The position numbers were made by a program, and so were the translations under genes. A stretch of DNA of 28,253 nt from a virus. Numbering within the stretch: the first letter of the stretch is position 1; each line of letters begins with the position of its first letter. Below, in pieces: positions 10,596-28,253 of this stretch. Under the pieces are notes generated by a model, which was not told where the DNA came from, did not search any database, and was given only the letters and a program-made list of their open reading frames with translations. Location: the UHGV virus genome UHGV-0121368. One strand, written 5' to 3'.

Positions 10596-10598
10596 CCG

Positions 10599-12154: not shown

Positions 12155-12157
12155 CGC

Positions 12158-12936: not shown

Positions 12937-12950
12937 ACGGAGTAAACACC

Positions 12951-13376
12951 ATGAAGAAATTATCCCTTTCACTGATGCTGAACGTGTCGCTGGCGCTGAT
13001 GCTGGCACTGTCCCTGATTTACCCGCAGAGCGTGGCCGTCAGTTTTGTCGCTGCCTGGGCGATTCTGGCGACGGTTATCTGTGTGGTTGCCGGTGGTGTC
13101 GGGGGGTATGCCACTGAGTATGTGCTGGAACGCTACGGGCGGGAGCTGCCGCCGGAATCACTGGCCGTGAAGATTGTCACGTCGCTGTTTTTGCAGCCGG
13201 TGCCGTGGTGCAGACGGGCAGTGGCTCTGGTTGTGATGGTGGCGACGTTTATCTCGCTGGTCGCCGCCGGATGGATTTTTACCGCGCTGATTTATCTCGT
13301 GGCGTCGGTGTTCTTCCGGCTGATACGTACAGCCTGCCGTCAGCGTCTTGAGGGGCGGGAACCATGTCAAGGCTGA
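12951..13376 (+). CDS. lysA: Lysis regulatory membrane protein LysA, 141 aa
   Basis: 141-aa strongly hydrophobic multi-TM protein following the endolysin; size equals P2 LysA. Confidence 0.7.
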   Translation: MKKLSLSLMLNVSLALMLALSLIYPQSVAVSFVAAWAILATVICVVAGGVGGYATEYVLERYGRELPPESLAVKIVTSLFLQPVPWCRRAVALVVMVATFISLVAAGWIFTALIYLVASVFFRLIRTACRQRLEGREPCQG

Positions 13377-13789
13377 TGATTGTGCTGGTTGTGTTGTTAT
13401 CGCTGGCGGTGGCGGGGCTGTTTCTGGTGAAACACAAAAATGCCAACCTGCGCGCCTCGCTGGACAGGGCGAACAATGTCGCCAGCGGGCAGCAGACGAC
13501 CATCACCATGCTGAAAAACCAGCTTCATGTTGCCCTTACCAGGGCAGACAAAAACGAGCTGGCGCAGGTGGCACTGCGTCAGGAACTGGAAAACGCCGCG
13601 AAGCGTGAAGCACAGCGCGAGAAAACCATCACGAGGTTACTCAATGAAAACGAAGATTTTCGCCGCTGGTACGGTGCTGACCTGCCTGATGCTGTGCGCC
13701 GGTTGCACCAGCGCCCGGCCTGCACCGACGCCAGTGATTGTCGCCAACGCCTGCCCGAAAGTGAGCCTTTGCCCGATGCCGGGCAGTGA
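13364..13789 (+). CDS. lysB: Inner-membrane spanin LysB (Rz-like), 141 aa
   Basis: N-terminal TM segment followed by a charged helical region; 141 aa, equal to P2 LysB. Confidence 0.7.
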   Translation: MSRLMIVLVVLLSLAVAGLFLVKHKNANLRASLDRANNVASGQQTTITMLKNQLHVALTRADKNELAQVALRQELENAAKREAQREKTITRLLNENEDFRRWYGADLPDAVRRLHQRPACTDASDCRQRLPESEPLPDAGQ

Positions 13790-13934
13790 CCCGCAGACGA
13801 ACGGCGATTTAAGTGCCGATATCCGGCAGCTTGAGAACGCGCTGGCACGCTGTGCCAGCCAGGTAAAAATGATTAAACACTGTCAGGACGAAAACGATGC
13901 TCAAACCCGACAGCCTGCGCAGGGCGCTGACTGA
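13644..13934 (+). CDS. lysC: Outer-membrane lipoprotein spanin LysC (Rz1-like), 96 aa
   Basis: +1-frame ORF beginning inside lysB; signal peptide plus lipobox (LCAGC); Pro-rich; 96 aa from the ATG at 13644. Confidence 0.7.
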   Translation: MKTKIFAAGTVLTCLMLCAGCTSARPAPTPVIVANACPKVSLCPMPGSDPQTNGDLSADIRQLENALARCASQVKMIKHCQDENDAQTRQPAQGAD

Positions 13935-14364
13935 TGCCGTCACGGTGCTGAAAACCAGTCCAGAGATGCTTCGGATATTCGTGGATAACGGGAGTATTGC
14001 CTCCACGCTGGCGACGTCGCTGTCGTTCGAAAAGCGTTACACGCTCAATGTGATTGTGACCGACTTTACCGGTGATTTTGACCTGCTCATTGTGCCGGTG
14101 CTGGCGTGGCTGCGGGAAAATCAGCCCGACATCATGACCACCGACGCAGGCCAGAAAAAGGGCTTCACGTTTTATGCAGACATCAACAATGACAGCAGCT
14201 TTGATATCAGCATCAGCCTGATGCTGACCGAGCGCACGCTGGTCAGTGAGGTGGACGGCGCACTGCATGTGAAGAATATCCCGGAACCCCCGCCGCCGGA
14301 GCCGGTCACCCGCCCGATGGAGCTGTATATCAATGGCGAACTGGTGAGCAAGTGGGATGAATGA
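13897..14364 (+). CDS. R: Tail completion protein R, 155 aa
   Basis: 155 aa, equal to P2 gpR; position after the lysis cassette. Confidence 0.8.
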   Translation: MLKPDSLRRALTDAVTVLKTSPEMLRIFVDNGSIASTLATSLSFEKRYTLNVIVTDFTGDFDLLIVPVLAWLRENQPDIMTTDAGQKKGFTFYADINNDSSFDISISLMLTERTLVSEVDGALHVKNIPEPPPPEPVTRPMELYINGELVSKWDE

Positions 14365-14809
14365 GTTTAAGCGTTTTGAAGACCGGCTGACCGGACTGAT
14401 TGAGTCGCTGTCACCGTCAGGGCGTCGACGACTGAGTGCCGAACTGGCGAAACGTCTGCGTCAGAGTCAGCAGCGCCGGGTGATGGCACAGAAAGCCCCG
14501 GACGGCACACCCTACGCACCACGCCAGCAGCAGAGCGCCAGAAAAAAGACCGGTCGCGTTAAGCGAAAAATGTTTGCGAAACTTATCACCAGTCGTTTTT
14601 TGCATATCCGCGCCAGCCCGGAACAGGCATCAATGGAGTTTTACGGCGGAAAGTCACCGAAAATCGCCAGCGTGCATCAGTTCGGTCTGTCGGAAGAAAC
14701 CCGGAAAGACGGTAAGAAAATTGATTATCCGGCGCGTCCTCTGCTCGGCTTTACCGGTGAGGATGTGCAGATGATTGAAGAGATTATCCTGGCTCACCTC
14801 GACCGTTAG
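14357..14809 (+). CDS. S: Tail completion protein S, 150 aa
   Basis: 150 aa, equal to P2 gpS; overlaps the R stop. Confidence 0.8.
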   Translation: MNEFKRFEDRLTGLIESLSPSGRRRLSAELAKRLRQSQQRRVMAQKAPDGTPYAPRQQQSARKKTGRVKRKMFAKLITSRFLHIRASPEQASMEFYGGKSPKIASVHQFGLSEETRKDGKKIDYPARPLLGFTGEDVQMIEEIILAHLDR

Positions 14810-14875
14810 TTGTGCCATTCCCGACACCTCATCGTCACATTGCCGCCGGTATGACCCGGCGGCATCCTTCCCGTT
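14810..14875 (+). promoter_or_regulatory. Candidate late promoter upstream of V with partial dyad
   Basis: Intergenic S-V gap contains TGTGCCATTCCCGACACC (GTG-N10-CAC / TGT-N12-ACC), resembling the Ogr-box dyad of P2 late promoters. Confidence 0.35.
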
Positions 14876-15511
14876 ATGAACACTCTCGCAAATATTCAGG
14901 AACTCGCGCGCGCACTGCGCAACATGATACGCACCGGCATTGTCGTCGAAACCGACCTTAACGTCGGTCGCTGCCGTGTGCAGACCGGCGGCATGTGCAC
15001 CGACTGGCTTCAGTGGCTGACCCATCGCGCCGGTCGTTCGCGCACATGGTGGGCACCTTCCGTGGGGGAACAGGTGCTGATTCTGTCCGTGGGCGGTGAA
15101 CTCGACACGGCGTTCGTTCTGCCGGGGATTTATTCCGGCGATAACCCCGCGCCGTCTGCGTCGGCGGATGCCCTGCATATCCGTTTCCCTGACGGAGCGG
15201 TGATTGAGTATGAACCTGAAACCAGTGCACTCACGGTAAGCGGAATTAAAACGGCCAGCGTGACGGCTTCTGATTCTGTTACCGCCACGGTGCCGGTGGT
15301 CATGGTGAAAGCATCAACCCGCGTCACCCTGGACACACCGGAGGTGGTCTGCACCAACAGGCTGATTACCGGCACGCTGGAAGTGCAGAAGGGCGGGACG
15401 ATGCGCGGCAACATTGAACATACCGGTGGTGAACTCTCATCAAACGGTAAGGTACTGCATACCCATAAACACCCCGGTGACAGTGGCGGCACAACAGGGG
15501 GACCTCTATGA
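14876..15511 (+). CDS. V: Baseplate spike protein, 211 aa
   Basis: 211 aa, equal to P2 gpV. Confidence 0.85.
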   Translation: MNTLANIQELARALRNMIRTGIVVETDLNVGRCRVQTGGMCTDWLQWLTHRAGRSRTWWAPSVGEQVLILSVGGELDTAFVLPGIYSGDNPAPSASADALHIRFPDGAVIEYEPETSALTVSGIKTASVTASDSVTATVPVVMVKASTRVTLDTPEVVCTNRLITGTLEVQKGGTMRGNIEHTGGELSSNGKVLHTHKHPGDSGGTTGGPL

Positions 15512-15855
15512 CTGCGCGTTATCTCGGAATGAATCGCAGTGATGGCCTGACGGTCACTGACCTTGAGCATATCAGCCAGAGTATCGGCGATATCCTGCGC
15601 ACACCGGTCGGCTCACGGGTGATGCGTCGTGATTACGGCTCGTTGCTGGCATCAATGATTGACCAGCCGCAGACCCCGGCGCTTGAGTTGCAGATTAAGG
15701 TCGCCTGTTACATGGCGGTGCTGAAATGGGAACCCCGCGTCACCCTGTCATCCGTCACCACTGAGCGCAGTTTTGACGGGCGAATGACGGTCACGTTAAC
15801 CGGCCAGCACAACGACACCGGCCAGCCACTTTCGTTAACCATCCCTGTGAGTTGA
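15508..15855 (+). CDS. W: Baseplate protein W (gp25-like), 115 aa
   Basis: 115 aa, equal to P2 gpW; translationally coupled to V. Confidence 0.85.
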   Translation: MTARYLGMNRSDGLTVTDLEHISQSIGDILRTPVGSRVMRRDYGSLLASMIDQPQTPALELQIKVACYMAVLKWEPRVTLSSVTTERSFDGRMTVTLTGQHNDTGQPLSLTIPVS

Positions 15856-15859
15856 AACC

Positions 15860-16768
15860 ATGCCGATTATCGACCTGAACCAGCTACCCGCACCGGATGT
15901 GGTCGAGGAGCTGGACTTTGAAACCATTCTCGCCGAACGCAAGGCGACACTGATTTCCCTTTACCCGGAAGACCAGCAGGAGGCGGTCGCCCGTACCCTG
16001 ACGCTGGAATCCGAGCCTCTCGTCAAACTGCTGGAGGAAAATGCTTATCGTGAGCTTATCTGGCGTCAGCGTGTGAATGAGGCCGCACGGGCGGTGATGC
16101 TGGCCTGTGCCGCCGGTAATGACCTTGATGTGATTGGTGCCAATTACAACACCACGCGCCTGATTATCACCCCGGCAGATGATTCGACTATCCCGCCGAC
16201 ACCGGCAGTGATGGAGTCTGACACCGATTATCGTCTGCGTATTCAGCAGGCGTTTGAGGGCTTAAGCGTCGCCGGGTCGGTGGGAGCCTATCAGTATCAT
16301 GGTCGCAGTGCTGACGGGCGTGTCGCGGATATTTCTGTCACCAGTCCGTCTCCGGCCTGCGTCACCATCTCTGTGCTGTCACGTGAAAATAACGGCGTCG
16401 CATCCGAAGACCTGCTGGCTGTGGTGCGTAACGCCCTTAATGGCGAGGACGTCAGGCCGGTGGCCGACCGCGTGACCGTGCAGTCTGCCGCCATCGTTGA
16501 ATACCAGATAAACGCCACGCTTTACCTTTACCCTGGTCCCGAAAGCGAACCCATACGCGCTGCCGCCGTGAAAAAACTGGAAGCGTACATCACGGCACAG
16601 CACCGGCTGGGGCGTGACATCCGTCTGTCTGCCATTTATGCCGCTTTGCATGTGGAAGGCGTGCAGCGTGTTGAACTGGCTTCACCACTGGCCGACATCG
16701 TGCTCAACAGTACGCAGGCGTCTTTCTGTACCGAATACCGCGTCGTGACCGGAGGCTCGGATGAGTGA
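15860..16768 (+). CDS. J: Baseplate protein J, 302 aa
   Basis: 302 aa, equal to P2 gpJ. Confidence 0.85.
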   Translation: MPIIDLNQLPAPDVVEELDFETILAERKATLISLYPEDQQEAVARTLTLESEPLVKLLEENAYRELIWRQRVNEAARAVMLACAAGNDLDVIGANYNTTRLIITPADDSTIPPTPAVMESDTDYRLRIQQAFEGLSVAGSVGAYQYHGRSADGRVADISVTSPSPACVTISVLSRENNGVASEDLLAVVRNALNGEDVRPVADRVTVQSAAIVEYQINATLYLYPGPESEPIRAAAVKKLEAYITAQHRLGRDIRLSAIYAALHVEGVQRVELASPLADIVLNSTQASFCTEYRVVTGGSDE

Positions 16769-17372
16769 TTCGCGACTGCTGCCGACCGGCTCATCACCGC
16801 TTGAAGTCGCTGCTGCAAAAGCCTGTGCGGAAATTGAAAAAACGCCGGTCAGTATTCGTGAGCTGTGGAACCCGGACACCTGCCCGGCAAATCTGCTGCC
16901 GTGGCTGGCGTGGTCATTTTCGGTTGACCGCTGGGATGATAAGTGGCCGGAAGCGACAAAACGCGCTGTTATCCGCGATGCGTATTTCATTCACTGCCAT
17001 AAGGGCACTATAGGCGCAATCCGGCGTGTGGTGGAGCCGCTCGGCTATCTGATTGAGGTGAGGGAGTGGTGGCAACTCAATGAGGAGCCGGGGACGTTCC
17101 GTATCGTTGTTGGCGTGCTTGAGCAGGGTATTACCGAGGAAATGTATCAGGAGCTGGAGCGCCTCGTTGCTGATGCAAAACCGGCAAGCCGCCATCTGAC
17201 GGGACTGGCTATCAGTTTAAGTACAACCGGCAACATTTTTGCCGGTGCGGGATGCTATCACGGCGACGCCCTGACAGTTTATCCCTACACCCCGGAGGCC
17301 ATTATTGTCGGAGGGGATTATTTCCCGGCCTCGGCCATTCATTTAATTGATAACCTGAGAGTAAACGCATGA
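16761..17372 (+). CDS. I: Baseplate protein I, 203 aa
   Basis: Overlaps the J stop and the H start; position matches P2 gpI (recalled as 176 aa, so here somewhat longer). Confidence 0.75.
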   Translation: MSDSRLLPTGSSPLEVAAAKACAEIEKTPVSIRELWNPDTCPANLLPWLAWSFSVDRWDDKWPEATKRAVIRDAYFIHCHKGTIGAIRRVVEPLGYLIEVREWWQLNEEPGTFRIVVGVLEQGITEEMYQELERLVADAKPASRHLTGLAISLSTTGNIFAGAGCYHGDALTVYPYTPEAIIVGGDYFPASAIHLIDNLRVNA

Positions 17373-18781
17373 CAGTGAAATACTACGCCATTCTGACTAA
17401 TCAGGGCGCAGCACGGCTGGCTAACGCGACGATGCTTGGCAGTAAGCTGAATCTGACGCAAATGGCCGTTGGTGATGCGAATGGTGTCTTGCCGACACCA
17501 GACCCGGCACAGACAAAACTGATTAACCAGAAACGCATCGCGCCGCTGAATCTTCTGAGTGTTGACCCGAACAACCAGAGCCAGATTATTGCGGAGCAAA
17601 TTATCCCTGAGAACGAGGGTGGATTCTGGATCCGTGAGATTGGGCTTTATGATGATGAAGGCGTACTCATTGCGGTGGCGAACTGCCCGGAAACGTACAA
17701 ACCGCAGTTACAGGAAGGCAGCGGTCGTACCCAGACTATCCGCATGATTCTGGTTGTCACGAATACCGAAGCTATTACGCTGAAAATCGACCCGTCGGTG
17801 GTACTGGCGACCCGTAAATACGTGGATGATAAAGTCCTGGAATTAAAGCTGTATGTGGATGACCAGATGAGAAACCACATTGCCGCACAGGATCCTCATA
17901 CCCAGTATGCACAGAAACATAATCCGACATTTACCGGAGAACCAAAAGCGCCGACGCCTGCCGCAGGAAATAACACCACGCGGATTGCGACCACTGCGTT
18001 TGTACAGGCCGCTATTACCGCTCTGATTAACGGTGCCCCTGACACGCTGGACACACTGAAAGAAATTGCCGCAGCTATCAACAATGACCCGAAATTCAGT
18101 ACCACCATTAACAATGCGCTGGCAGGTAAACAACCGCTGGACAATACGCTGACTCATTTGAGTGGAAAGGATGTAGCTGGTCTTCTCACATACCTTGGTT
18201 TGGGAGAAGGCTCTGCATTACCTGTTGGTGTCCCTGTTCCGTGGCCTTCAGCCACTCCGCCAACAGGCTGGCTGAAATGCAATGGTGCGGCTTTTTCTGC
18301 TGAAGAATACCCGGAACTGGCAAAGGCTTACCCGACAAATAAATTGCCAGATTTACGTGGTGAGTTTATTCGTGGCTGGGATGACGGGCGAGGGATTGAT
18401 GGGGGGCGCATACTTCTCAGTTGTCAGAGTTTTGCTTTCCAGGACCATGCGCACGCTCTGCCAACCGGAGTGGGTAATCCGTCATACCAGATGGAAAGCG
18501 ATATCTATACGGTTTTCAACGATGAACCAGAAATACCCAGTGCGGTCCTGAGTCCATCGTCGTCAGGAACATCATGGGACGCAACCAGTAGGGCAGACAA
18601 GGTAATCCTTTATCGCAAGGACCTTTCACCAACAGGTAATAACAACGAAATAGCGCCCGGATTACCACCATTCAGGACTTACAGGGCATCGACCTCAGAC
18701 GGTGTTACTCATCCGTCCGTGTACGCATCTGAAACCCGTCCGCGCAACATTGCATTTAACTACATCGTGAGGGCTGCATAA
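17369..18781 (+). CDS. H: Tail fibre protein H, 470 aa in the current orientation of the invertible segment
   Basis: Tail-fibre-like N-terminus (MTVKYYAILTNQGAARLANATMLGSKLNLTQMAVGDANG...); the C-terminal 194 aa lie inside the invertible segment. Confidence 0.85.
   Translation: MTVKYYAILTNQGAARLANATMLGSKLNLTQMAVGDANGVLPTPDPAQTKLINQKRIAPLNLLSVDPNNQSQIIAEQIIPENEGGFWIREIGLYDDEGVLIAVANCPETYKPQLQEGSGRTQTIRMILVVTNTEAITLKIDPSVVLATRKYVDDKVLELKLYVDDQMRNHIAAQDPHTQYAQKHNPTFTGEPKAPTPAAGNNTTRIATTAFVQAAITALINGAPDTLDTLKEIAAAINNDPKFSTTINNALAGKQPLDNTLTHLSGKDVAGLLTYLGLGEGSALPVGVPVPWPSATPPTGWLKCNGAAFSAEEYPELAKAYPTNKLPDLRGEFIRGWDDGRGIDGGRILLSCQSFAFQDHAHALPTGVGNPSYQMESDIYTVFNDEPEIPSAVLSPSSSGTSWDATSRADKVILYRKDLSPTGNNNEIAPGLPPFRTYRASTSDGVTHPSVYASETRPRNIAFNYIVRAA
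18183..18208. repeat. Left 26-bp Hin/Gin-type crossover site (TTCTCACATACC-TT-GGTTTGGGAGAA) inside H
   Basis: The 12-bp half-site GGTTTGGGAGAA is the exact inverted repeat of TTCTCCCAAACC at 19869..19880; overall layout resembles hix/gix sites (12-bp half-site, 2-bp core, 12-bp half-site). Confidence 0.65.
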
Positions 18782-19386
18782 TGGCGAAAGCAAAATTAAA
18801 CAGTGCGTTTATTGCCACCGTGGCAGGAGAAATCACTGTGTACAACTACCGGGGCGACACCCGCGAATACATATCCTCATCGCTTGAGTATCTGCCTGTG
18901 GGGGTGGGTATTCCTGCCAATTCCTGTACCGATGCGCCCGGCACACATAAGGCTGGTTATGCAATCTGCCGTTCTGCAGATTTTAACTCATGGGAATATG
19001 TGCCAGACCATCGCGGTGAAATTGTCTATGGCATCGAAACGGGGGAATCAAAAGAAATTACTGTGCCGGGGGATTACCCTGAAAATACGACCACTTTTGC
19101 CCCATTAACGCCATACGATAAATGGGATGGTGAGAAATGGGTAACAGATACCGAGGCACAGCATAGCGCCGCAGTAGATGCAGCAGAAGTACAGCGCCAG
19201 TCTCTGATTGATGCTGCTATGGCTTCCATCAGTCTGATTCAGCTGAAATTGCAGGCCGGACGTAAACTGACGCAGGCAGAAACAACCCGCCTTAACGCTG
19301 TGCTGGATTACATTGACGCGGTGACGGCAATAGATACCAGCACCGCGCCTGATATTATTTGGCCTGTATTCCCTGAGACTGATTAA
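18781..19386 (+). CDS. G: Tail fibre assembly chaperone, 201 aa
   Basis: ATG overlaps the H stop (TAATG); C-terminal motif DTSTAPDIIWPVFP typical of Tfa-family chaperones. Confidence 0.8.
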   Translation: MAKAKLNSAFIATVAGEITVYNYRGDTREYISSSLEYLPVGVGIPANSCTDAPGTHKAGYAICRSADFNSWEYVPDHRGEIVYGIETGESKEITVPGDYPENTTTFAPLTPYDKWDGEKWVTDTEAQHSAAVDAAEVQRQSLIDAAMASISLIQLKLQAGRKLTQAETTRLNAVLDYIDAVTAIDTSTAPDIIWPVFPETD

Positions 19387-19615
19387 CCTCAATCAGTATT
19401 GGTTCGCCTTTCTCATTAATTGTTAGCTCCATGCCCTGAGGAATTTCTGTCATAGTAAAAAACCAGTTGTCCTCCGGTAATTCAATAGCCCCGGTCACGT
19501 CATGAAGACCGGGGATTACTTCAGTCAAAGTAACTGGATTAAACAGGCGCACAATAAACCCTCCATGAAAAAGCATTTGATGATGGTCTGCCGTCGTACA
19601 TCTGGCAGCGGGCAT
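19355..19615 (-). CDS. Small ORF (86 aa) downstream of the alternative H cassette; possible alternative chaperone, or spurious
   Basis: Minus-strand ORF inside the invertible segment; overlaps the alternative H cassette and the 3' end of G; lacks the Tfa C-terminal motif. Confidence 0.2.
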   Translation of the reverse strand: MPAARCTTADHHQMLFHGGFIVRLFNPVTLTEVIPGLHDVTGAIELPEDNWFFTMTEIPQGMELTINEKGEPILIEVNQSQGIQAK

Positions 19616-19880
19616 AAAAGCCGGTATTTGTTACCTGATCATCCACGATCATTGAAACGTGAACATTATTAGGTGTGCTCTCGTAATCCGTTCTTATTCT
19701 TTCTGCGATACTGATAAAACGTGAAAGTTTAGGCAGTGCAATTGGGTAAACGACTTTAGCCAGTCCATTATCATTAGATCCACCGGTTCCAAATACTTCT
19801 ATTGCACCATCTGACCAGCGTACCCATGCACCATTGGCATTAGCTCCTCGCTGAATGACATATCTGGCTTCTCCCAAACC
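19539..19880 (-). CDS. Alternative tail-fibre C-terminal cassette (about 113 aa), silent in the current orientation
   Basis: The minus-strand frame reads G-L-G-E across the crossover half-site exactly as H does, so inversion fuses the constant H N-terminus (aa 1-276) in frame to ...GLGEARYVIQRGANANGAWVRW...; no own start codon or promoter. Confidence 0.55.
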   Translation of the reverse strand, partial: GLGEARYVIQRGANANGAWVRWSDGAIEVFGTGGSNDNGLAKVVYPIALPKLSRFISIAERIRTDYESTPNNVHVSMIVDDQVTNTGFYARCQMYDGRPSSNAFSWRVYCAPV

Positions 19881-19894
19881 AACGTTTTATGGAA
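19869..19894. repeat. Right 26-bp Hin/Gin-type crossover site (TTCTCCCAAACC-AA-CGTTTTATGGAA)
   Basis: Inverted partner of the site at 18183..18208; 14 of the first 14 positions are identical to the reverse complement of the left site. Confidence 0.65.
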
Positions 19895-19982
19895 TCGGTT
19901 AAATATGATGTTGAAAGAAGGGAATGTTTTAGTATTGATTGTTAGATAAAAATGGAAAGTGCTGATTGTCACGGTATATTTT

Positions 19983-20014
19983 AAGATGGTAACACCAAAT
20001 GGTGCTACCATCTT
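19983..20014. terminator. 14-bp stem-loop (AAGATGGTAACACC-AAAT-GGTGCTACCATCTT), possible bidirectional terminator
   Basis: Near-perfect inverted repeat with one G-U-compatible mismatch, followed on the plus strand by TATTAGTT; lies between the right crossover site and the 105-aa ORF stop. Confidence 0.4.
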
Positions 20015-20020
20015 TATTAG

Positions 20021-20338
20021 TTATCTGTTCCTTCTGAGGATTCCGCTACTCCCTTGTGTTGTAGGGTTTGATTTTTTCCAATAATGATAACCTTGTGATG
20101 TAATCCTTAGAGAGTCAGTATCTACACTCCATCCATCAATACTTTCAGGAGAACCATCAAAGATTACCTTTCCTGTAAGATACCCATCGTCATGCAGAAA
20201 GGCGATATATCCATAAACTTCTTTTAAATCACCAATTTCATTGACCAGGCGTTCCCACGCTTGAGCAGTGATTCTCTCTGGATAGGCTTCGACAAAATAT
20301 TTCAGTGTGGTAGTTTTTTTATTGGTATCGATGTTCAT
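20021..20338 (-). CDS. Unknown 105-aa protein in the Z/fun-equivalent variable locus
   Basis: Minus-strand ORF in an AT-rich island between the invertible segment and the invertase gene; no recognisable motif. Confidence 0.45.
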   Translation of the reverse strand: MNIDTNKKTTTLKYFVEAYPERITAQAWERLVNEIGDLKEVYGYIAFLHDDGYLTGKVIFDGSPESIDGWSVDTDSLRITSQGYHYWKKSNPTTQGSSGILRRNR

Positions 20339-20536
20339 CAGATTTTCCTTTTATTGAGGTCAACATATCTTACCATACTTAATTGATTCACATGGGAATG
20401 CTAAGTGGGCTATGTATCCACTATCAGTAAATATTCTTATCCTGCAAGATTATTGTAATTGAGTGCTTCATAGTCTTGTCCGCTTGTACATATATAGATA
20501 ATTCTGTGTCATTATTCTGTTTTTATAGGGATTTTT

Positions 20537-21130
20537 ATGCATATAGGTTATGTTCGTGTATCAACAAATGACCAGAACACGGAATTGCAGCGTAACGCGC
20601 TGGAGTGCGCAGGATGTGAGCTGATTTTTGAGGATAAAATCAGCGGCACGAAGTCCGATCGACCGGGACTGAAAAAACTGCTCAGAACATTATCAGCAGG
20701 TGACACTCTGGTAGTCTGGAAGCTGGACAGGCTGGGGCGTAGTATGCGGCATCTGGTCATTCTGGTTGAGGAACTGCGCGAACGCGGTGTTAATTTTCGC
20801 AGCCTGACGGATGCCATTGATACCAGCACGCCGATGGGGCGTTTTTTCTTTCATGTGATGGGGGCCCTGGCTGAAATGGAACGAGAACTCATTGTCGAGC
20901 GGACTCGGGCCGGGCTGGAAGTGGCCAGAGCCAAAGGTCGTATTGGTGGCAGACGTCCTAAACTCACCACGAGTGAGTGGGAGCAGGCCGGGCGTTTGCT
21001 GGCTGCAGGGGAGTCACGTCAACGCGTGGCACTGATTTTTGATATTGGTCTGTCCACGCTCTATAAAAAATTTCCCTCATCAGCGACAAAGAATAAATTG
21101 TGTCATCCCTTAGCCAACCGGGACAAATAG
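20537..21130 (+). CDS. Serine DNA invertase (Hin/Gin/Pin/Cin family), 197 aa
   Basis: N-terminal catalytic motif IGYVRVSTNDQ with the nucleophilic Ser near position 9-10; LVVWKLDRLGRS and GRFFFHVMGALAEMERELIVERT blocks; C-terminal HTH (GLSTLYKKFP); closely resembles Hin as I recall it. Confidence 0.9.
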   Translation: MHIGYVRVSTNDQNTELQRNALECAGCELIFEDKISGTKSDRPGLKKLLRTLSAGDTLVVWKLDRLGRSMRHLVILVEELRERGVNFRSLTDAIDTSTPMGRFFFHVMGALAEMERELIVERTRAGLEVARAKGRIGGRRPKLTTSEWEQAGRLLAAGESRQRVALIFDIGLSTLYKKFPSSATKNKLCHPLANRDK

Positions 21131-21189
21131 CCTGACATCTCCGGCACAACTGAAAATATCACTCACCCATTAACCACGGAGTTAAACGG
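21131..21189 (+). promoter_or_regulatory. Candidate late promoter upstream of FI
   Basis: Intergenic region before the sheath/tube operon, with GGAG Shine-Dalgarno before the FI ATG; position equivalent to P2 PF; no clear dyad seen. Confidence 0.3.
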
Positions 21190-22380
21190 ATGAGTGACTA
21201 TCATCACGGCGTGCAGGTGCTGGAGATTAACGACGGCACCCGCGTCATTTCCACCGTATCCACTGCCATTGTCGGCATGGTTTGCACGGCCAGCGATGCG
21301 GATGCGCAAATCTTCCCCCTCAATAAACCGGTGCTGATTACCAATGTGCAGAGCGCAATTGCAAAGGCCGGTAAAAAAGGCACGCTGGCGGCATCGTTGC
21401 AGGCCATCGCCGACCAGTCAAAACCGGTCACCGTTGTCGTGCGTGTGGAAGATGGCACCGGTGACGACGAGGAAACGAAACTCGCGCAGACCGTTTCCAA
21501 TATCATCGGCACCACCGACGAAAACGGTCAGTACACCGGACTGAAAGCCCTGCTGGCGGCGGAGTCGGTAACCGGTGTTAAACCGCGCATTCTCGGTGTG
21601 CCGGGACTGGACACCAAAGAGGTGGCTGTTGCACTGGCATCAGTCTGTCAGAAGCTGCGCGCTTTCGGGTATATCAGCGCATGGGGCTGTAAAACCATTT
21701 CCGAGGTGAAAGCCTACCGCCAGAATTTCAGCCAGCGTGAGCTGATGGTCATCTGGCCGGATTTCCTCGCATGGGATACGGTCACCAGTACCACCGCCAC
21801 CGCGTATGCCACCGCCCGTGCGCTGGGTCTGCGCGCTAAAATCGACCAGGAGCAGGGCTGGCATAAAACGCTGTCCAACGTTGGGGTGAACGGTGTTACC
21901 GGCATCAGCGCCTCTGTATTCTGGGATTTGCAGGAGTCCGGCACCGATGCTGACCTGCTTAACGAGTCAGGCGTCACAACGCTGATTCGCCGTGACGGTT
22001 TCCGCTTCTGGGGTAACCGTACCTGCTCTGATGACCCGCTGTTCCTCTTTGAAAACTACACCCGCACCGCGCAGGTGCTGGCCGACACGATGGCTGAGGC
22101 GCACATGTGGGCGGTGGACAAGCCCATCACCGCAACGCTGATTCGCGACATCGTTGACGGCATCAATGCCAAATTCCGTGAGCTGAAAACAAACGGCTAT
22201 ATCGTGGATGCGACCTGCTGGTTCAGCGAAGAATCCAACGATGCGGAAACCCTCAAGGCCGGAAAACTGTATATCGACTACGACTATACCCCGGTGCCTC
22301 CTCTCGAAAACCTGACCCTGCGCCAGCGTATTACCGATAAATACCTGGCAAATCTGGTCACTTCGGTTAACAGCAATTAA
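21190..22380 (+). CDS. FI: Tail sheath protein, 396 aa
   Basis: 396 aa, equal to P2 gpFI. Confidence 0.9.
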   Translation: MSDYHHGVQVLEINDGTRVISTVSTAIVGMVCTASDADAQIFPLNKPVLITNVQSAIAKAGKKGTLAASLQAIADQSKPVTVVVRVEDGTGDDEETKLAQTVSNIIGTTDENGQYTGLKALLAAESVTGVKPRILGVPGLDTKEVAVALASVCQKLRAFGYISAWGCKTISEVKAYRQNFSQRELMVIWPDFLAWDTVTSTTATAYATARALGLRAKIDQEQGWHKTLSNVGVNGVTGISASVFWDLQESGTDADLLNESGVTTLIRRDGFRFWGNRTCSDDPLFLFENYTRTAQVLADTMAEAHMWAVDKPITATLIRDIVDGINAKFRELKTNGYIVDATCWFSEESNDAETLKAGKLYIDYDYTPVPPLENLTLRQRITDKYLANLVTSVNSN

Positions 22381-22392
22381 GGAGCCTGACCG

Positions 22393-22911
22393 ATGGCAAT
22401 GCCGCGCAAACTCAAGTTAATGAACGTCTTTCTGAACGGCTACAGCTATCAGGGCGTTGCAAAGTCCGTCACGCTGCCAAAACTGACCCGTAAGCTCGAA
22501 AACTATCGCGGTGCGGGGATGAACGGCAGCGCACCGGTAGACCTCGGCCTTGATGACGATGCGCTGTCAATGGAGTGGTCGCTCGGGGGCTTCCCGGATT
22601 CGGTTATCTGGGAGCTTTACGCCGCAACCGGCGTGGATGCCGTGCCGATTCGTTTTGCAGGCTCTTACCAGCGCGACGATACCGGCGAAACGGTGGCCGT
22701 CGAAGTGGTCATGCGTGGCCGTCAGAAAGAAATCGACACCGGTGAGGGTAAACAGGGAGAAGACACCGAGTCGAAAATCTCCGTGGTCTGCACCTATTTC
22801 CGGCTGACGATGGACGGTAAGGAGCTGGTCGAAATTGACACCATCAACATGATTGAGAAGGTGAACGGCGTCGACCGGCTGGAGCAACACCGCCGCAATA
22901 TCGGCCTGTGA
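22393..22911 (+). CDS. FII: Tail tube protein, 172 aa
   Basis: 172 aa, equal to P2 gpFII; follows the sheath gene. Confidence 0.9.
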   Translation: MAMPRKLKLMNVFLNGYSYQGVAKSVTLPKLTRKLENYRGAGMNGSAPVDLGLDDDALSMEWSLGGFPDSVIWELYAATGVDAVPIRFAGSYQRDDTGETVAVEVVMRGRQKEIDTGEGKQGEDTESKISVVCTYFRLTMDGKELVEIDTINMIEKVNGVDRLEQHRRNIGL

Positions 22912-22918
22912 TTTTCAT

Positions 22919-22939
22919 CCGGTCAGCCAGGCTGACCGG
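22919..22939 (+). other. Perfect 9-bp stem-loop (CCGGTCAGC-CAG-GCTGACCGG) between FII and E
   Basis: Perfect inverted repeat 8 nt after the FII stop; no U-tract follows, so more likely an RNA processing/stability element or attenuator than a full terminator. Confidence 0.35.
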
Positions 22940-22967
22940 TTAACCCTGATTAAGAAGTGAGAAAACC

Positions 22968-23243
22968 ATGAACAAAGAAAATGTGATTACCCTGGACAAT
23001 CCGGTCAAACGTGGTGAGCAGGTTATCGAACAGGTCACGCTGATGAAACCCAATGCCGGGACGCTGCGCGGTGTCAGTCTGGCTGCGGTTGCAAACTCCG
23101 AAGTCGATGCACTGATTAAGGTGCTGCCGCGCATGACGGCACCGATGCTGACCGAGCAGGAAGTCGCCGCGCTGGAACTGCCTGACCTTGTGGCGCTGGC
23201 CGGTAAGGTGGTCGGTTTTTTGTCGCCGAACTCGGTGCAGTGA
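22968..23243 (+). CDS. E: Tail assembly chaperone E, 91 aa
   Basis: 91 aa, equal to P2 gpE; ends just after a T-TTT-TTG slippery heptamer. Confidence 0.8.
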   Translation: MNKENVITLDNPVKRGEQVIEQVTLMKPNAGTLRGVSLAAVANSEVDALIKVLPRMTAPMLTEQEVAALELPDLVALAGKVVGFLSPNSVQ

Positions 23244-23395
23244 CGTTTCCGAAAAATCTCTCGGTCGATGACCTGATGGCGGATGTGGCAGTGATATTTC
23301 ACTGGCCGCCATCAGAACTGTATCCCATGAGCCTGACCGAACTCATCACATGGCGCGAAAAGGCGCTCCGGCGAAGCGGAAACACGAATGAGTAA
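22968..23395 (+). CDS. E': E+E' tail assembly chaperone produced by programmed -1 frameshift (about 142 aa)
   Basis: Slippery heptamer T_TTT_TTG at 23216..23222; the -1 frame is open from there to TAA at 23393..23395 (...FFVAELGAVTFPKNLSVDDLMADVAVIFHWPPSELYPMSLTELITWREKALRRSGNTNE) and overlaps the T start. Confidence 0.65.
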
Positions 23396-25835
23396 CAATG
23401 TAAAATTACAGGTATTGCTCAGGGCTGTTGACCAGGCATCCCGCCCGTTTAAATCCATCCGCACAGCGAGTAAGTCGCTGTCGGGGGATATCCGGGAAAC
23501 ACAAAAATCACTGCGCGAGCTGAACGGTCACGCATCCCGTATTGAGGGATTTCGCAAGACCAGTGCGCAGCTCGCCGTGACTGGTCATGCACTTGAAAAG
23601 GCACGGCAGGAAGCCGAAGCCCTTGCCACACAGTTTAAAAACACCGAACGTCCGACCCGTGCTCAGGCGAAAGTGCTGGAATCCGCAAAGCGAGCGGCGG
23701 AGGACTTACAGGCGAAATATAACCGCCTGACGGATTCCGTTAAACGCCAGCAGCGGGAACTGGCCGCTGTGGGAATTAATACCCGCAATCTTGCACATGA
23801 TGAGCAGGGACTGAAAAACCGTATCAGTGAAACCACCGCACAGCTTAACCGTCAGCGCGACGCGCTGGCGCGTGTCAGTGCGCAACAGGCAAAACTTAAC
23901 GCAGTCAAACAGCGTTATCAGGCCGGAAAGGAACTGGCCGGAAATATGGCCTCAGTGGGCGCTGCCGGTGTGGGGATTGCGGCGGCGGGAACGATGGCCG
24001 GAGTTAAGCTGCTGATGCCCGGTTATGAGTTTGCGCAGAAAAACTCAGAATTGCAGGCTGTGCTGGGAGTGGCAAAAGACTCCGCCGAAATGACCGCACT
24101 CCGCAAACAGGCGCGCCAGCTCGGCGACAATACCGCCGCCTCAGCGGATGATGCGGCCGGTGCACAGATAATCATCGCGAAAGCGGGTGGGGATGTTGAT
24201 GCCATTCAGGCGGCAACACCGGTCACGCTGAATATGGCGCTGGCGAACCGCCGCACGATGGAAGAAAACGCCGCCCTGCTGATGGGGATGAAATCCGCCT
24301 TTCAGCTTTCAAACGATAAGGTCGCTCATATCGGGGATGTTCTCTCCATGACGATGAACAAAACCGCCGCCGATTTTGACGGCATGAGCGATGCTCTGAC
24401 CTATGCCGCACCTGTGGCAAAAAATGCCGGTGTCAGCATTGAAGAAACCGCCGCAATGGTCGGGGCGCTGCATGATGCAAAAATCACAGGCTCAATGGCG
24501 GGGACGGGAAGCCGTGCCGTGTTAAGCCGCCTGCAGGCACCGACGGGAAAAGCATGGGATGCACTCAAAGAGCTTGGAGTGAAAACCTCAGACAGCAAGG
24601 GAAACACCCGGCCAATATTTACCATTCTGAAAGAAATGCAGGCCAGTTTTGAGAAAAACCGGCTCGGTACTGCCCAGCAGGCTGAATACATGAAAACCAT
24701 TTTCGGGGAGGAGGCCAGCTCAGCCGCCGCCGTGCTGATGACTGCCGCCTCAACCGGAAAGCTGGACAAACTGACCGCTGCGTTTAAAGCCTCAGACGGG
24801 AAGACCGCCGAGCTGGTAAATATCATGCAGGACAACCTAGGCGGTGACTTTAAAGAGTTTCAGTCCGCTTATGAGGCAGTGGGGACTGACCTGTTTGACC
24901 AGCAGGAAGGCGCACTGCGTAAGCTCACTCAGACGGCCACAAAGTATGTGTTAAAACTCGACGGCTGGATCCAGAAAAACAAATCACTGGCGTCAACCAT
25001 CGGCCTCATTGTCGGTGGCGCGCTGGCGCTTATTGGCATCATCGGTGCCATTGGTCTTGTAGCCTGGCCGGTTATCACCGGCATCAATGCCATTATCGCG
25101 GCAGCAGGCGCAATGGGGGCAATCTTCACGACGGTTAGCAGTGCTGTTATGACGGCCATCGGGGCGATTAGCTGGCCGGTTGTGGCCGTGGTGGCCGCCA
25201 TTGTCGCCGGGGCGTTGCTTATCCGTAAATACTGGGAGCCTGTCAGCGCATTCTTTGGCGGTGTGGTTGAAGGGCTGAAAGCGGCATTTGCGCCGGTGGG
25301 GGAACTGTTCACGCCACTGAAGCCGGTGTTTGACTGGCTGGGCGAAAAGTTACAGGCCGCGTGGCAGTGGTTTAAAAACCTGATTGCCCCGGTCAAAGCC
25401 ACCCAGGACACCCTGAACCGTTGCCGTGACACGGGCGTCATGTTCGGGCAGGCACTGGCTGACGCGCTGATGCTGCCGCTTAATGCGTTCAACAAACTGC
25501 GCAGTGGTATTGACTGGGTACTGGAAAAACTCGGTGTTATCAACAAAGAGTCAGACACACTTGATCAGACCGCCGCCAGAACTCAAGCCGCCACGTATGG
25601 CAGCGGTGGTTATATTCCGGCGACCAGCTCTTATGCAGGCTATCAGGCTTATCAGCCGGTCACGGCACCGGCTGGCCGCTCTTATGTAGACCAGAGTAAA
25701 AACGAATATCACATCAGCCTGACGGGTGGTACTGCGCCGGGGACACAGCTTGACCGCCAGTTACAGGATGCGCTCGAAAAATACGAGCGGGATAAACGTG
25801 CGCGCGCCCGTGCCAGCATGATGCATGACGGTTAA
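23388..25835 (+). CDS. T: Tail tape measure protein, 815 aa
   Basis: 815 aa, equal to P2 gpT; helical N-terminal half and Gly/Ala-rich hydrophobic segments typical of tape measure proteins. Confidence 0.9.
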   Translation: MSNNVKLQVLLRAVDQASRPFKSIRTASKSLSGDIRETQKSLRELNGHASRIEGFRKTSAQLAVTGHALEKARQEAEALATQFKNTERPTRAQAKVLESAKRAAEDLQAKYNRLTDSVKRQQRELAAVGINTRNLAHDEQGLKNRISETTAQLNRQRDALARVSAQQAKLNAVKQRYQAGKELAGNMASVGAAGVGIAAAGTMAGVKLLMPGYEFAQKNSELQAVLGVAKDSAEMTALRKQARQLGDNTAASADDAAGAQIIIAKAGGDVDAIQAATPVTLNMALANRRTMEENAALLMGMKSAFQLSNDKVAHIGDVLSMTMNKTAADFDGMSDALTYAAPVAKNAGVSIEETAAMVGALHDAKITGSMAGTGSRAVLSRLQAPTGKAWDALKELGVKTSDSKGNTRPIFTILKEMQASFEKNRLGTAQQAEYMKTIFGEEASSAAAVLMTAASTGKLDKLTAAFKASDGKTAELVNIMQDNLGGDFKEFQSAYEAVGTDLFDQQEGALRKLTQTATKYVLKLDGWIQKNKSLASTIGLIVGGALALIGIIGAIGLVAWPVITGINAIIAAAGAMGAIFTTVSSAVMTAIGAISWPVVAVVAAIVAGALLIRKYWEPVSAFFGGVVEGLKAAFAPVGELFTPLKPVFDWLGEKLQAAWQWFKNLIAPVKATQDTLNRCRDTGVMFGQALADALMLPLNAFNKLRSGIDWVLEKLGVINKESDTLDQTAARTQAATYGSGGYIPATSSYAGYQAYQPVTAPAGRSYVDQSKNEYHISLTGGTAPGTQLDRQLQDALEKYERDKRARARASMMHDG

Positions 25836-25849
25836 GGAGGTGACGAAAA

Positions 25850-26329
25850 ATGATGCTCGCGTTAGGTATGTTTGTTTTTATGCGCCAGACGCTGCCACAC
25901 CAGACCATGCAGCGTGAATCAGATTATCGCTGGCCGTCAAATTCCCGTATCGGCAAACGGGATGCCTATCAGTTTCTCGGTGTGGGTGAGGAAAACATGA
26001 CGCTTGCCGGTGTGCTTTATCCCGAACTGACCGGCGGAAAGCTGACGATGACCACGCTCAGGCTGATGGCAGAGGAAGGCCGGGCGTGGCCGTTGCTGGA
26101 TGGCACCGGCATGATTTACGGCATGTATGTCATCAGCAAGGTGAGTGAAACAGGGAGTATTTTCTTTGCAGACGGCACACCCCGGAAAATTGATTTTACG
26201 CTGTCACTCACCCGCGTTGATGAATCACTGGCCGCGCTTTATGGCGATATCGGTAAACAGGCGGAATCGCTCATCGGTAAGGCTGGCAGTATGGCGACTA
26301 AATTCACGGGTATGACGGGGGCGGGATAA
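25850..26329 (+). CDS. U: Tail protein U, 159 aa
   Basis: 159 aa, equal to P2 gpU. Confidence 0.85.
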   Translation: MMLALGMFVFMRQTLPHQTMQRESDYRWPSNSRIGKRDAYQFLGVGEENMTLAGVLYPELTGGKLTMTTLRLMAEEGRAWPLLDGTGMIYGMYVISKVSETGSIFFADGTPRKIDFTLSLTRVDESLAALYGDIGKQAESLIGKAGSMATKFTGMTGAG

Positions 26330-27492
26330 TGCTGGATGCGCTGACATTTGATGCAGGCAGTACGCTGACGCCGGATTACATGCTGATGCTCGACAGCAGG
26401 GATATTACCGGCAATATCAGCGACCGTCTGATGAGTATGACCCTGACGGATAACCGGGGCTTTGAGGCTGACCAGCTTGATATTGAACTGAACGATGCCG
26501 ACGGGCAGGTCGGGCTGCCGGTTCGTGGCGCTGTCCTGACGGTGTATATCGGCTGGAAAGGTTTTGCCCTGGTATGCAAAGGGAAATTTACCGTTGATGA
26601 GGTTGAACACCGGGGCGCTCCGGATGTGGTCACCATCCGCGCCCGGAGTGCAGATTTTCGCGGGACGCTCAATTCCCGCCGGGAAGGCTCCTGGCATGAC
26701 ACCACGCTCGGTGCGATTGTTGAGGCGATAGCCTCCCGTAACAGGCTGGAAGCCAGTGTCGCGCCGTCACTGGCAGGAATTAAAATCCCGCACATCGACC
26801 AGTCGCAGGAGTCCGACGCGAAATTCCTGACCCGTCTTGCAGAACGCAACGGCGGTGAGGTGTCGGTAAAAATGGGAAAACTGTTGTTTCTCAAAGCGGG
26901 GCAGGGGGTGACGGCCAGTGGTAAAAAAATCCCGCAGGTCACCATAACCCGCAGCGACGGCGACCGCCATCATTTTGCGATTGCTGACCGTGGAGCCTAT
27001 ACCGGCGTAACGGCAAAGTGGTTACACACCAAAGACCCGAAGCCGCAAAAGCAGAAGGTAAAACTGAAACGCAAAAAGAAAGAGAAACACCTGCGCGCAC
27101 TGGAGCACCCGAAAGCGAAACCGGTCAGGCAGAAGAAAGCGCCTAAAGTACCGGAAGCGCGCGAAGGTGAATACATGGCCGGTGAGGCTGACAACGTTTT
27201 TGCCCTGACCACGGTATATGCCACAAAAGCGCAGGCCATGCGCGCCGCTCAGGCGAAGTGGGATAAACTGCAACGGGGCGTTGCGGAGTTCTCCATCAGT
27301 CTGGCTACCGGTCGTGCTGATATTTACACGGAAACACCGGTTAAAGTGTCAGGCTTTAAGCGCGTCATAGACGAGCAGGACTGGACAATCACTAAGGTGA
27401 CACATTTTCTGAATAATAGCGGCTTCACGACGTCCTTGGAGCTTGAGGTCAGGCTTTCTGATGTGGAGTACGAAACAGAAGGTGATGAGTGA
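26329..27492 (+). CDS. D: Tail protein D (late control gene D), 387 aa
   Basis: 387 aa, equal to P2 gpD; overlaps the U stop. Confidence 0.85.
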   Translation: MLDALTFDAGSTLTPDYMLMLDSRDITGNISDRLMSMTLTDNRGFEADQLDIELNDADGQVGLPVRGAVLTVYIGWKGFALVCKGKFTVDEVEHRGAPDVVTIRARSADFRGTLNSRREGSWHDTTLGAIVEAIASRNRLEASVAPSLAGIKIPHIDQSQESDAKFLTRLAERNGGEVSVKMGKLLFLKAGQGVTASGKKIPQVTITRSDGDRHHFAIADRGAYTGVTAKWLHTKDPKPQKQKVKLKRKKKEKHLRALEHPKAKPVRQKKAPKVPEAREGEYMAGEADNVFALTTVYATKAQAMRAAQAKWDKLQRGVAEFSISLATGRADIYTETPVKVSGFKRVIDEQDWTITKVTHFLNNSGFTTSLELEVRLSDVEYETEGDE

Positions 27493-27573
27493 TGTTTTTA
27501 TTTTATCTGTTTGTTTTATAAGGATAAATTAACTAAAATGGCACCATCAACAAAACCGGAAGAGGTGCTCGCG

Positions 27574-27792
27574 ATGTTTCATTGTCCTTTATGCCAGCAT
27601 GCCGCACATGCGCGTACAAGCCGCTATATCACTGACACGACAAAAGAGCGTTATCACCAGTGTCAGAACGTGAATTGCAGCGCCACGTTCATAACTTATG
27701 AGTCGGTACAGCGATACATCGTGAAGCCGGGAGAAGTCCACGCCGTAAGGCCGCACCCGTTGCCGTCAGGGCAGCAAATTATGTGGATGTAA
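27574..27792 (+). CDS. ogr: Late-gene transcription activator Ogr (Cys4 zinc finger), 72 aa
   Basis: Start moved to the ATG at 27574 (GAAGAGG upstream); MFHCPLCQHAAHARTSRYITDTTKERYHQCQNVNCSATF carries C-x2-C ... C-x4-C; 72 aa, equal to P2 Ogr. Confidence 0.85.
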   Translation: MFHCPLCQHAAHARTSRYITDTTKERYHQCQNVNCSATFITYESVQRYIVKPGEVHAVRPHPLPSGQQIMWM

Positions 27793-27803
27793 TTACAAAC
27801 AGG

Positions 27804-27829
27804 AAGCCCCTCAGTCGAGGGGCTTTTTT
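27804..27829 (+). terminator. Rho-independent terminator after ogr
   Basis: AGCCCCTC-AGTC-GAGGGGCT hairpin followed by TTTTTT. Confidence 0.7.
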
Positions 27830-27892
27830 GTCGATGTGGTCAATGTGTGGACGTGACCAGAAATAAATCCTTTTATTTCATGTGATTAGATA

Positions 27893-27919
27893 TCAAAAAA
27901 TGTCACCAATAACTGACAT
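27893..27919 (-). pseudogene. pflA: Truncated 5' end of pflA (pyruvate formate-lyase activating enzyme): MSVIG then DIF-stop
   Basis: Minus-strand ATG 191 bp downstream of the pflB stop, with GGAGA Shine-Dalgarno; the first five codons match the PflA N-terminus as I recall it (MSVIGRIH...), then the sequence diverges into prophage DNA with a stop at codon 9. Confidence 0.45.
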
Positions 27920-28042
27920 TGCGGTGTTTCTCCAGATGTGGCCCATCTGAGGCCGTGTTGGTGCGCAGCTCGAAGGCTACGTCGAGTCTGTTTTGGCAGT
28001 CACCTTAAAGTATAGATAGCTGACAAAAAAGGCTCTCGCGCT

Positions 28043-28068
28043 AAAAAAGGCCCCACTTTCGTGGAGCC
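28043..28068 (-). terminator. Rho-independent terminator of pflB (minus strand)
   Basis: GGCTCCAC-GAAA-GTGGGGCC hairpin followed on the minus strand by TTTTTT, about 45 nt after the pflB stop. Confidence 0.7.
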
Positions 28069-28110
28069 TTTATTGTACGCTTTTTACTGTACGATTTCAG
28101 TCAAATCTAA

Positions 28111-28253
28111 TTACATAGATTGAGTGAAGGTACGAGTAATAACGTCCTGCTGCTGTTCTTTAGTCAGCGAGTTGAAACGTACTGCGTAGCCAGATACACG
28201 GATGGTCAGCTGCGGATATTTTTCCGGGTTTTCCATCGCGTCGAGCAGCATTT
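28111..28253 (-). CDS. pflB: 3' end of pyruvate formate-lyase (partial; continues beyond the window end)
   Basis: Minus-strand translation ...[46 protein letters not shown]-stop contains the glycyl-radical fingerprint RVSGY and the PflB C-terminus as I recall it. Confidence 0.75.

Follow-up and report, generated by a model that had tools for sequence, protein, structure and literature searches.

A P2-like prophage at the 5' end of pflA and the probable rebuilding of the gene at the other prophage end

The right end of the window (the whole 28,253-nt stretch of DNA analysed here) is, in a reading that we hold with good confidence, the attR of a P2-like prophage with a PhiD145-type integration module, whose attL rebuilds pflA as a 265-aa leader fusion transcribed from the phage side. 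An 'interrupted' pflA is not the same as an 'inactivated' pflA, and the comparative sequence data point to repair of the gene, not its destruction, as the most likely outcome of this insertion.

The right junction and its attachment core

Phage genes in the window follow the order B, A, Q/P, capsid, tail, D and ogr, and the right end of the window is 97-98.5% identical to Peduovirus genomes. With D and ogr last before att, the prophage is a P2-like (Peduovirus) phage. Matching genomes annotate ogr as OgrK, and pflB is annotated at the corresponding place in all of them. The features on which the following account draws are these:

1..27904 (+), P2-like (Peduovirus) prophage DNA from gene B to ogr, plus the P' arm, from ORF order and identity to Peduovirus genomes
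27574..27792 (+), ogr, late-gene activator and final phage gene before att (Pfam Ogr_Delta PF04606, E = 1.1e-21)
27804..27825 (no strand assigned), G+C-rich ogr hairpin AAGCCCCTC GACT GAGGGGCTT, read in sequence
27835..27852 (+), two direct putative arm-type Int-binding repeats of the P' arm, from a pattern search
27893..27919 (-), stub ORF MSVIGDIF*, made of the native start codon, pflA codons 2-5, three phage codons and TGA
27905..27917 (-), att core of 13 bp, GTCAGTTATTGGT, from a four-way comparison and exact breakpoints
27920..28110 (-), native pflB-pflA intergenic region at attR, 100% identical to K-12
28068..28043 (-), pflB terminator hairpin GGCTCCAC-GAAA-GTGGGGCC followed by T6, read in sequence
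28111..28253 (-), 3' end of pflB (formate C-acetyltransferase), leaving the window, identical to K-12 pflB

A preliminary description, made from the letters of the sequence, had placed the prophage junction inside the start of pflA, and alignment to the uninterrupted K-12 pflB-pflA locus locates it there precisely. Every base from 28253 to 27905 equals K-12 (349 bases), and the first mismatch falls at 27904. Against free phage 11W the window matches over 27400-27917, with 7 scattered differences, and diverges from 27918. The core GTCAGTTATTGGT, which is found once in the window, is the same in attB, attP, attL and attR and corresponds to nt 3-15 of the pflA coding sequence. K-12 attB reads ...caccgcaat GTCAGTTATTGGT cgcattcac and 11W attP reads ...ggctaccaa GTCAGTTATTGGT gacatttttt; attR carries the host left side and the phage right side, and attL the phage left side and the host right side. 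The four sites are related by a reciprocal crossover inside the 13-bp core.

The details of that description all prove correct. The pflB stop, TAA, lies at 28113..28111 in the minus-strand reading, and the gap from it to the ATG is the 191 nt that had been counted. An SD sequence, GGAGA (27933..27929, minus strand), then ATG TCA GTT ATT GGT (27919..27905) and GAC ATT TTT TGA (27904..27893) all occur where they had been read. E. coli PflA had been given as beginning MSVIGRIH, as K-12 PflA does, and the host gene is indeed cut after codon 5, K-12 identity ending at 27905. Integration at the 5' end of pflA, which had been proposed, agrees with a core covering nt 3-15 of the coding sequence. That core had been expected to overlap ATGTCAGTTATTGGT; it forms the last 13 of these 15 bases and leaves the A and T of the ATG outside. 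The '9-codon stub' comprises the eight residues of MSVIGDIF* and a stop, and it is the reciprocal product of the crossover. In the free phage, an attP-spanning ORF of 27 residues ends in the same GDIF* tail, and it starts at the same ATG as the leader described below. The base-exact K-12 alignment refutes a coincidental MSVIG match with the junction in intergenic DNA, a reading left with practically no chance of being right: the 349 identical bases take in all of the intergenic region together with the first 15 nt of pflA, and K-12 attB is the annotated pflA start.

Several RNA features surround the stub. The pflB terminator hairpin at 28068..28043 is readable in the sequence, although the terminator scan did not list it; a pflB terminator is mentioned in earlier work (PMC5371410). 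Together with TTTTTT on the plus strand, the ogr hairpin forms the ogr terminator, 68 nt beyond the stub by our measurement and about 65 bp in the preliminary description. The scan flagged this hairpin on the minus strand (9 pairs, including 6 G-C; terminator-like), and it may halt transcription that runs from the native pflA promoter into the prophage. K-12 position 951147, an RNase III site or pflA transcript start beside the pflA promoter (PMC5371410), maps to about 27986 in the window. A hairpin in the stranded pflA 5'UTR, CTCGA-CGTAGCCT-TCGAG (27969..27986, minus strand), coincides with this RNase III or transcript-start site, and in lysogens only the eight-residue stub lies downstream of the processing site.

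The P' arm repeats, TGTGGTC at 27835 and TGTGGAC at 27846, are 11 bp apart. They fit the P2-type arm consensus tgTGGaCa (PMC3448106) and are putative Int sites. On the other side of the core in relatives, the arm repeats TGTCCA and CGTCCA overlap the 3' end of int.

The site itself is known. The core occupies NC_000913.3 951066..951078. MG1655 numbering of 2011 runs 777 bp below that of NC_000913.3, so that 950293 becomes 951070; this offset agrees with the pflA coordinates in NC_000913.3. The published integration site of PhiD145 and PhiD160 is MG1655 950293, and that of PhiECA29 is identified as the 'PhiD145' site (Table 1 of Nilsson & Haggard-Ljungquist 2011, PMC3448106). The converted position falls inside the core, and the window junction is thus the published PhiD145/PhiD160 attachment site, which is also that of ECA29.

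Lysogeny at this site is common. Of 5426 complete E. coli genomes, 403 contain the attR junction and 405 the attL junction (~7.4%), and the lysogens include APEC O1 and UPEC132. E. coli DAX4 has an attR region 100% identical to the window and matches the left end of the window at 96.5-97.6%; the best match to the first 6 kb among the 5426 E. coli genomes is 98.3%. The integrase and attP are shared by some 13 free phages of known sequence (11W, D8, 12W, S164, P24E6b, P24A7b, pro483, pro147 and others), and free phages whose P' arm matches the window have an int at least 97% identical to that of the lysogens.

Among these phages are several isolated on Yersinia pestis EV76 (MT374857, ON146439, OR545056 and OR545057), which thus carry an E. 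coli pflA-type attP and integrase. We draw a parallel to a remark made on L-413C, that the natural lysogenic host of such phages is probably E. coli (PMC3448106).

Two accessory positions in the window deserve mention. Between gene A and the portal gene Q, at the position of the P2 old/tin hotspot, lies a 440-aa ORF (3977..5299, plus strand). Its sole match is phrog_23812 (function unknown), over its full length, with no Pfam, PADLOC or NCBIfam match; RefSeq names it 'HEPN domain-containing protein' in some relatives, and we regard it as a candidate anti-phage cargo gene. At the P2 Z/fun hotspot, between the tail-fibre and tail-sheath genes, are three small ORFs of 85-111 aa (19355..20338, minus strand), for which PADLOC (all three) and Pfam (two of them) gave no match.

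The pflA frame at the opposite prophage end

Since int, C, cox and attL are located to the left of the window, the attL of this prophage is reconstructed from relatives that share its attR. In DAX4 and in E. albertii lysogens with the same attR, a 331-aa P2-type Int adjoins attL. The int gene of DAX4 ends in TAA, and 31 nt further on a phage ATG opens a leader of 19 codons, MSNLTNCNTTENTAAAGAT, which stays in frame across AAG, the junction codon, and continues as SVIGRIHSFES... to the usual C-terminus of PflA. AAG (Lys) occupies the position of the native ATG (Met1), and the phage ATG is preceded by a weak SD sequence (GAAG). The 31-nt gap after int and the ATG with 19 in-frame codons recur in all examined lysogens with the same attR. 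Across the attL of relatives, an uninterrupted pflA frame is restored as a 265-aa ORF in E. coli, E. albertii, Scandinavium, Pseudescherichia, Rahnella, Citrobacter, Klebsiella and Salmonella, and we infer that the attL of this prophage has the same rebuilt frame.

The preliminary description had suggested looking at the left prophage end for the remaining pflA sequence behind a matching core, and in relatives with the same attR that is its location. It had also raised two alternatives: that this end supplies a replacement promoter and N-terminus, or that the lysogen has altered PFL activation, with a possible physiological cost. The first is what those relatives show as regards the start codon and N-terminus; a replacement promoter is presumed.

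DAX4 annotates the fused protein at 265 aa, against 246 for native PflA. The residues that the fusion shares with K-12 PflA are identical, and residues 21-265 match the crystallised PflA (3C8F/3CB8) at 100% identity. Over the same residues the fusion scores 523.5 bits against the PflA equivalog NF008356 (cut-off 375), and the radical-SAM CX3CX2C motif is intact, with C49, C53 and C56 invariant in the alignment. By score and motif the fusion is assigned to PflA (NF008356), of which the window itself holds just codons 1-5. Five lysogens listed at attL have pflA annotated as intact at one pflA locus each. A second intact pflA copy was considered and rejected for these lysogens, given the single locus in each.

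An AlphaFold2 model of the Salmonella fusion (108 sequences, the leader being present in few rows of the alignment) has a pLDDT of 90.9 and a pTM of 0.87. Residues 1-17 are coil with pLDDT below 50, and the first strand begins at residue 24; the 19-residue leader is predicted to be a disordered tail. The tryptic peptide predicted from the leader-PflA fusion is SNLTNCNTTENTAAAGATK.

Native PflA proteins with N-termini some 16-18 residues longer also occur in some Gammaproteobacteria in prophage-free settings, in Providencia (P0127) and in P0200, P0132 and L092-L094. One such N-terminus reads MSTTTNIIPTADLSTTAPPATL-GRIH, and L092 has an ordinary pflB-pflA layout without an integrase.

We propose a model in which recombination within the core GTCAGTTATTGGT (nt 3-15) splits pflA. 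attR keeps the native promoter, 5'UTR, SD, ATG and codons 2-5, and encodes MSVIGDIF* alone, its transcripts reaching the ogr hairpin. The body of pflA would land at attL, immediately behind int and in the same orientation, where the phage P arm would give an ATG and 19 codons (MSNLTNCNTTENTAAAGAT), beginning 31 nt after the int stop and in frame to codon 2, the native ATG becoming AAG (Lys) at the junction. The lysogen would encode a PflA of 265 aa, the native enzyme with a 19-residue flexible N-terminal tail, and the fused PflA most likely retains the ability to activate pyruvate formate-lyase. Transcription of pflA could come by read-through of the lysogenic C-int transcript or from a weak promoter in the 3' end of int. 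From the sequence comparisons we infer that the fused gene is translated and active.

Conservation of the leader and the source of transcription

Relatives were sought through the integrase among one-genome-per-species contigs, and not through PflA, because a PflA search would favour open frames. In all six complete loci found in this way (int 76-100% identity; Escherichia albertii, three Scandinavium species, Pseudescherichia vulneris and Rahnella ecdela), pflA comes directly after int. Viral contigs that extend past int and adjoin pflA likewise run from int through the leader to pflA; an IMG/VR scan gave 80 loci, with most prophage contigs trimmed at the int stop and about ten long enough beyond it. 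Protein look-ups add Citrobacter (with a C-int-leader-pflA layout), Klebsiella pneumoniae and Salmonella, bringing the leader design to at least six genera besides Escherichia. A protein-level query of 60 aa covering the leader returned mostly short fragments and was of use for three variants. The fusion protein is found on at least 1000 E. coli contigs and on 336 Klebsiella contigs.

At 16 loci, with 13 distinct leaders among them, the ATG stands exactly 60 nt upstream of codon 2 without exception. These leaders contain no stop in the pflA frame and 33 and 37 in the other two frames, a count that includes some variants found through called proteins, a subset biased to open frames. Given its composition, a single leader would be open by chance with a probability of 0.13-0.33. 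The two halves of the leader differ in pairwise identity, 78% in the first (30 nt) and 61% in the second. The first half is AT-rich and resembles an IHF half-site (AAT TTA ACT AAT TGT AAT, TAAnnnnTTG), and the peptide of the second half is freely variable and rich in T, S, N, E, D, A and G.

The Rahnella-type attL (L008, L058, L059, L061 and L066) keeps an ATG at the native start, behind a GGGGG SD-like run. It also has the upstream in-frame ATG with a 19-codon leader, giving two possible starts.

At several loci the leader persists where the prophage is largely gone:

L096/L097: pflB, then 431 nt with int codons 269-331 (L096 2070-2500), then leader-pflA
L098/L099: int codons 281-306, then leader-pflA
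L091 (1800-2045): int codons 258-323, then leader-pflA, with pflA split by a frameshift
Salmonella enterica L100/L101 (AANRCF010000043.1, AAPPHK010000095.1), 1-3298: pflB, sopD2 (opposite strand), ~300 nt, then a 265-aa leader-pflA

The last 26-66 int codons are all that remains of int in L091, L096 and L098. The first three entries are contigs from metagenome runs and have the form of deletion scars that keep the phage-derived first 20 pflA codons, and in L096 the int remnant adjoins the 3' region of pflB without anything else between them; the frameshift in L091 marks a pseudogene or else comes from faulty assembly.

Salmonella carries out mixed-acid fermentation and requires PflA, and in L100/L101 pflA has the phage-type leader of 20 codons; S. 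bongori seems to differ in this layout. The ~300 nt before the fusion are 70% identical to the 3' end of E. coli int plus leader, and no int reading frame remains in them. The neighbouring gene in L100/L101 scores 660 bits against the sopD2 equivalog NF011907; STM0972 is sopD2 (PMC6125333). From its sequence, the Salmonella sopD2 locus looks like the remnant of a PhiD145-type prophage at the pflA att site. In these remnants the recombination system is gone and yet the fusion is open, which would not be expected of a non-functional fusion.

The main rival explanation for the conservation of the leader is that its ORF is a by-product of attP architecture, in which the spacing of arm, IHF site and core sets the length, the ATG and open frame are incidental, and PflA is made from another start or made poorly. 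The constant length is what recombination geometry predicts, the IHF half-site-like, AT-rich first 30 nt are the part that is best conserved across lineages (78%), and in the Rahnella type the ATG at the native position means that the upstream ATG is not strictly needed. We nevertheless consider this explanation improbable. The second half, variable as it is (61%), is stop-free in frame in every lineage, and AAG, AAA or a GTG-less codon takes the place of the native start in the E. coli, Scandinavium, Citrobacter and Salmonella types, which have no other in-frame start before the first cluster cysteine. The remnants, moreover, are dead for recombination yet have kept the ORF. Still less probable, in our view, is a true disruption, in which integration inactivates pflA, lysogens lack PFL activation and the attL ORF is an unexpressed annotation artefact. 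Such a reading could appeal to the native promoter, SD and ATG that all remain at attR, to the weak SD before the phage ATG and to a review in which ECA29 disrupts pflA (PMC13492144). It has to contend with 13 diverged leaders that hold no in-frame stop where the other frames hold 33 and 37, with a fusion kept in four lineages after prophage decay, with lysogeny in 7.4% of complete E. coli genomes, APEC O1 and UPEC132 included, five listed lysogens lacking a second pflA, and with the large number of E. coli and Klebsiella contigs (at least 1000 and 336) that carry the fusion.

If the insertion repairs pflA, as we favour, the gene needs a new source of transcripts. The native promoter, 5'UTR and SD stay at attR, ~30 kb from the body of the gene, and pflA transcription must now be supplied by the phage side. 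C, int and pflA share one strand at attL, and int follows C within the same lysogenic transcript. No terminator is predicted in the attL of relatives between C, int and pflA, up to the native pflA terminator, and the int-leader RNA is unstructured (z = 0.14). A terminator or attenuator between int and the leader was considered and ruled out on this lack of RNA structure. With C and int on one transcript, no terminator and an unstructured RNA, read-through into pflA is the simplest expectation.

A hairpin stands immediately behind int in two relatives with other integration sites. In L087 (IMGVR_UViG_3300021966_000302), a 70%-identical integrase adjoins pyrE and is followed at once by a G+C-rich hairpin. 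An ORF running from the upstream DNA into pyrE would add 26 residues, and it is either a second 5' replacement or just the native upstream region.

It is quite possible, though we lean somewhat against it, that pflA at attL is driven instead by a phage promoter in the last ~100-200 nt of int, much as in HK022 at torS. In E. coli the sequence TTAACC-16-CATAAT, which resembles a promoter, ends 41 nt upstream of the leader ATG, and similar matches stand in the same place in Rahnella, L091 and L096. In the four fossils at least ~150 nt from the 3' end of int survive although C and most of int are gone, which hints at an internal promoter, and in Salmonella the upstream gene, sopD2, points away; HK022 itself provides a precedent (PMC6814406). 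The matches are weak, however (8-9 of 12), overlap the Int arm repeats and are absent in Scandinavium, Citrobacter and L098; in the consensus scan they were no commoner than in shuffles (5 found, 3.8 expected), and read-through would be expected in any case with no terminator between int and pflA. Being weak, unevenly conserved and superimposed on arm repeats, these matches are not claimed here as an identified promoter.

It is tempting to speculate, at close to an even chance, that the P arm evolved as a portable first exon for pflA, its start codon and disordered 19-residue leader set at exactly 60 nt from the crossover, and that this key anaerobic enzyme would be served by phage-derived transcription for as long as the int-proximal ~200 bp stays. 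Imprecise loss of the prophage would then kill pflA, so that the int-proximal end would be retained and, in some lineages, fixed in the host gene, including the Salmonella pflB-sopD2-pflA arrangement.

Implications and comparison with known systems

For annotators and prophage surveys, the practical consequence is that pflA should not be scored as disrupted in ~7% of E. coli, or in Klebsiella, Salmonella, Citrobacter and other carriers, and that a 265-aa PflA is a phage-host chimera. The system is a clean case, and a widespread one, of probable 5' repair of a protein-coding gene by a phage that uses unrelated sequence, and expression of an enzyme of anaerobic metabolism may be tied to the lysogenic state. 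The fossils suggest that such a repair can become fixed in the host gene, and they suggest an origin for the Salmonella sopD2 locus.

The attachment site and the phage group were already known. In the open literature searched, to which the primary PhiD145 and ECA29 papers did not belong, we found no description of N-terminal replacement of pflA or of pflA together with P2-like phages; we regard the replacement as mildly novel and make no claim of priority. The PhiD145/PhiD160 module (PMC3448106) occupies the same chromosomal position as the window core and has, like the relatives of the window, a P2-type integrase, tgTGGaCa-type arm repeats and a P2-type C/cox switch, a likeness that rests on the position of the site, the PhiD145 sequence itself lying outside the comparison. 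ECA29 of Pectobacterium atrosepticum SCRI1043 is likewise P2-like, is listed with the 'PhiD145' site and is reported to be located in pflA, as here (PMC13492144, PMC6385640). A 2026 review reports that its integration 'disrupted the pflA gene' (PMC13492144), whereas the comparative data presented here, which come from other genera, argue for repair.

Phage P2, with its intergenic att site locI, shares the gene order, the ogr-att-int-C layout and the type of arm repeat, but differs in core and site, and its int aligns over ~28% of the relatives' int query at ~71% nucleotide identity. Phage 21 and e14 integrate in icd, and phage 186 and others in tRNA genes, where attP duplicates the displaced end of the gene. 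Cases in tRNA genes have been described among P2-like phages (PMC3448106). There, as here, the phage arm substitutes for the displaced part and rebuilds an intact gene; the icd and tRNA cases, however, put a near-copy of the host sequence in place of a 3' end, whereas in pflA the 5' end is replaced with unrelated sequence that adds 19 residues, and a 5' replacement, unlike those cases, calls for new signals for transcription and translation.

In function, the nearest parallel among the cases studied is HK022 at torS. That phage, common at this site in wild E. coli, integrates on the 5' side of a host gene with int directed toward it; the native promoter is separated from the gene, which is transcribed from phage DNA beside int (PMC6814406). 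The layout is the same as at pflA, with int aimed at a gene cut from its native promoter. The HK022 promoter and phenotype were shown experimentally (PMC6814406), whereas the pflA case is known from sequence alone. The two also differ in where the crossover falls: att of HK022 lies upstream of the coding sequence and leaves the protein unchanged, while here the core lies inside the coding sequence and the phage adds a start codon and 19 residues.
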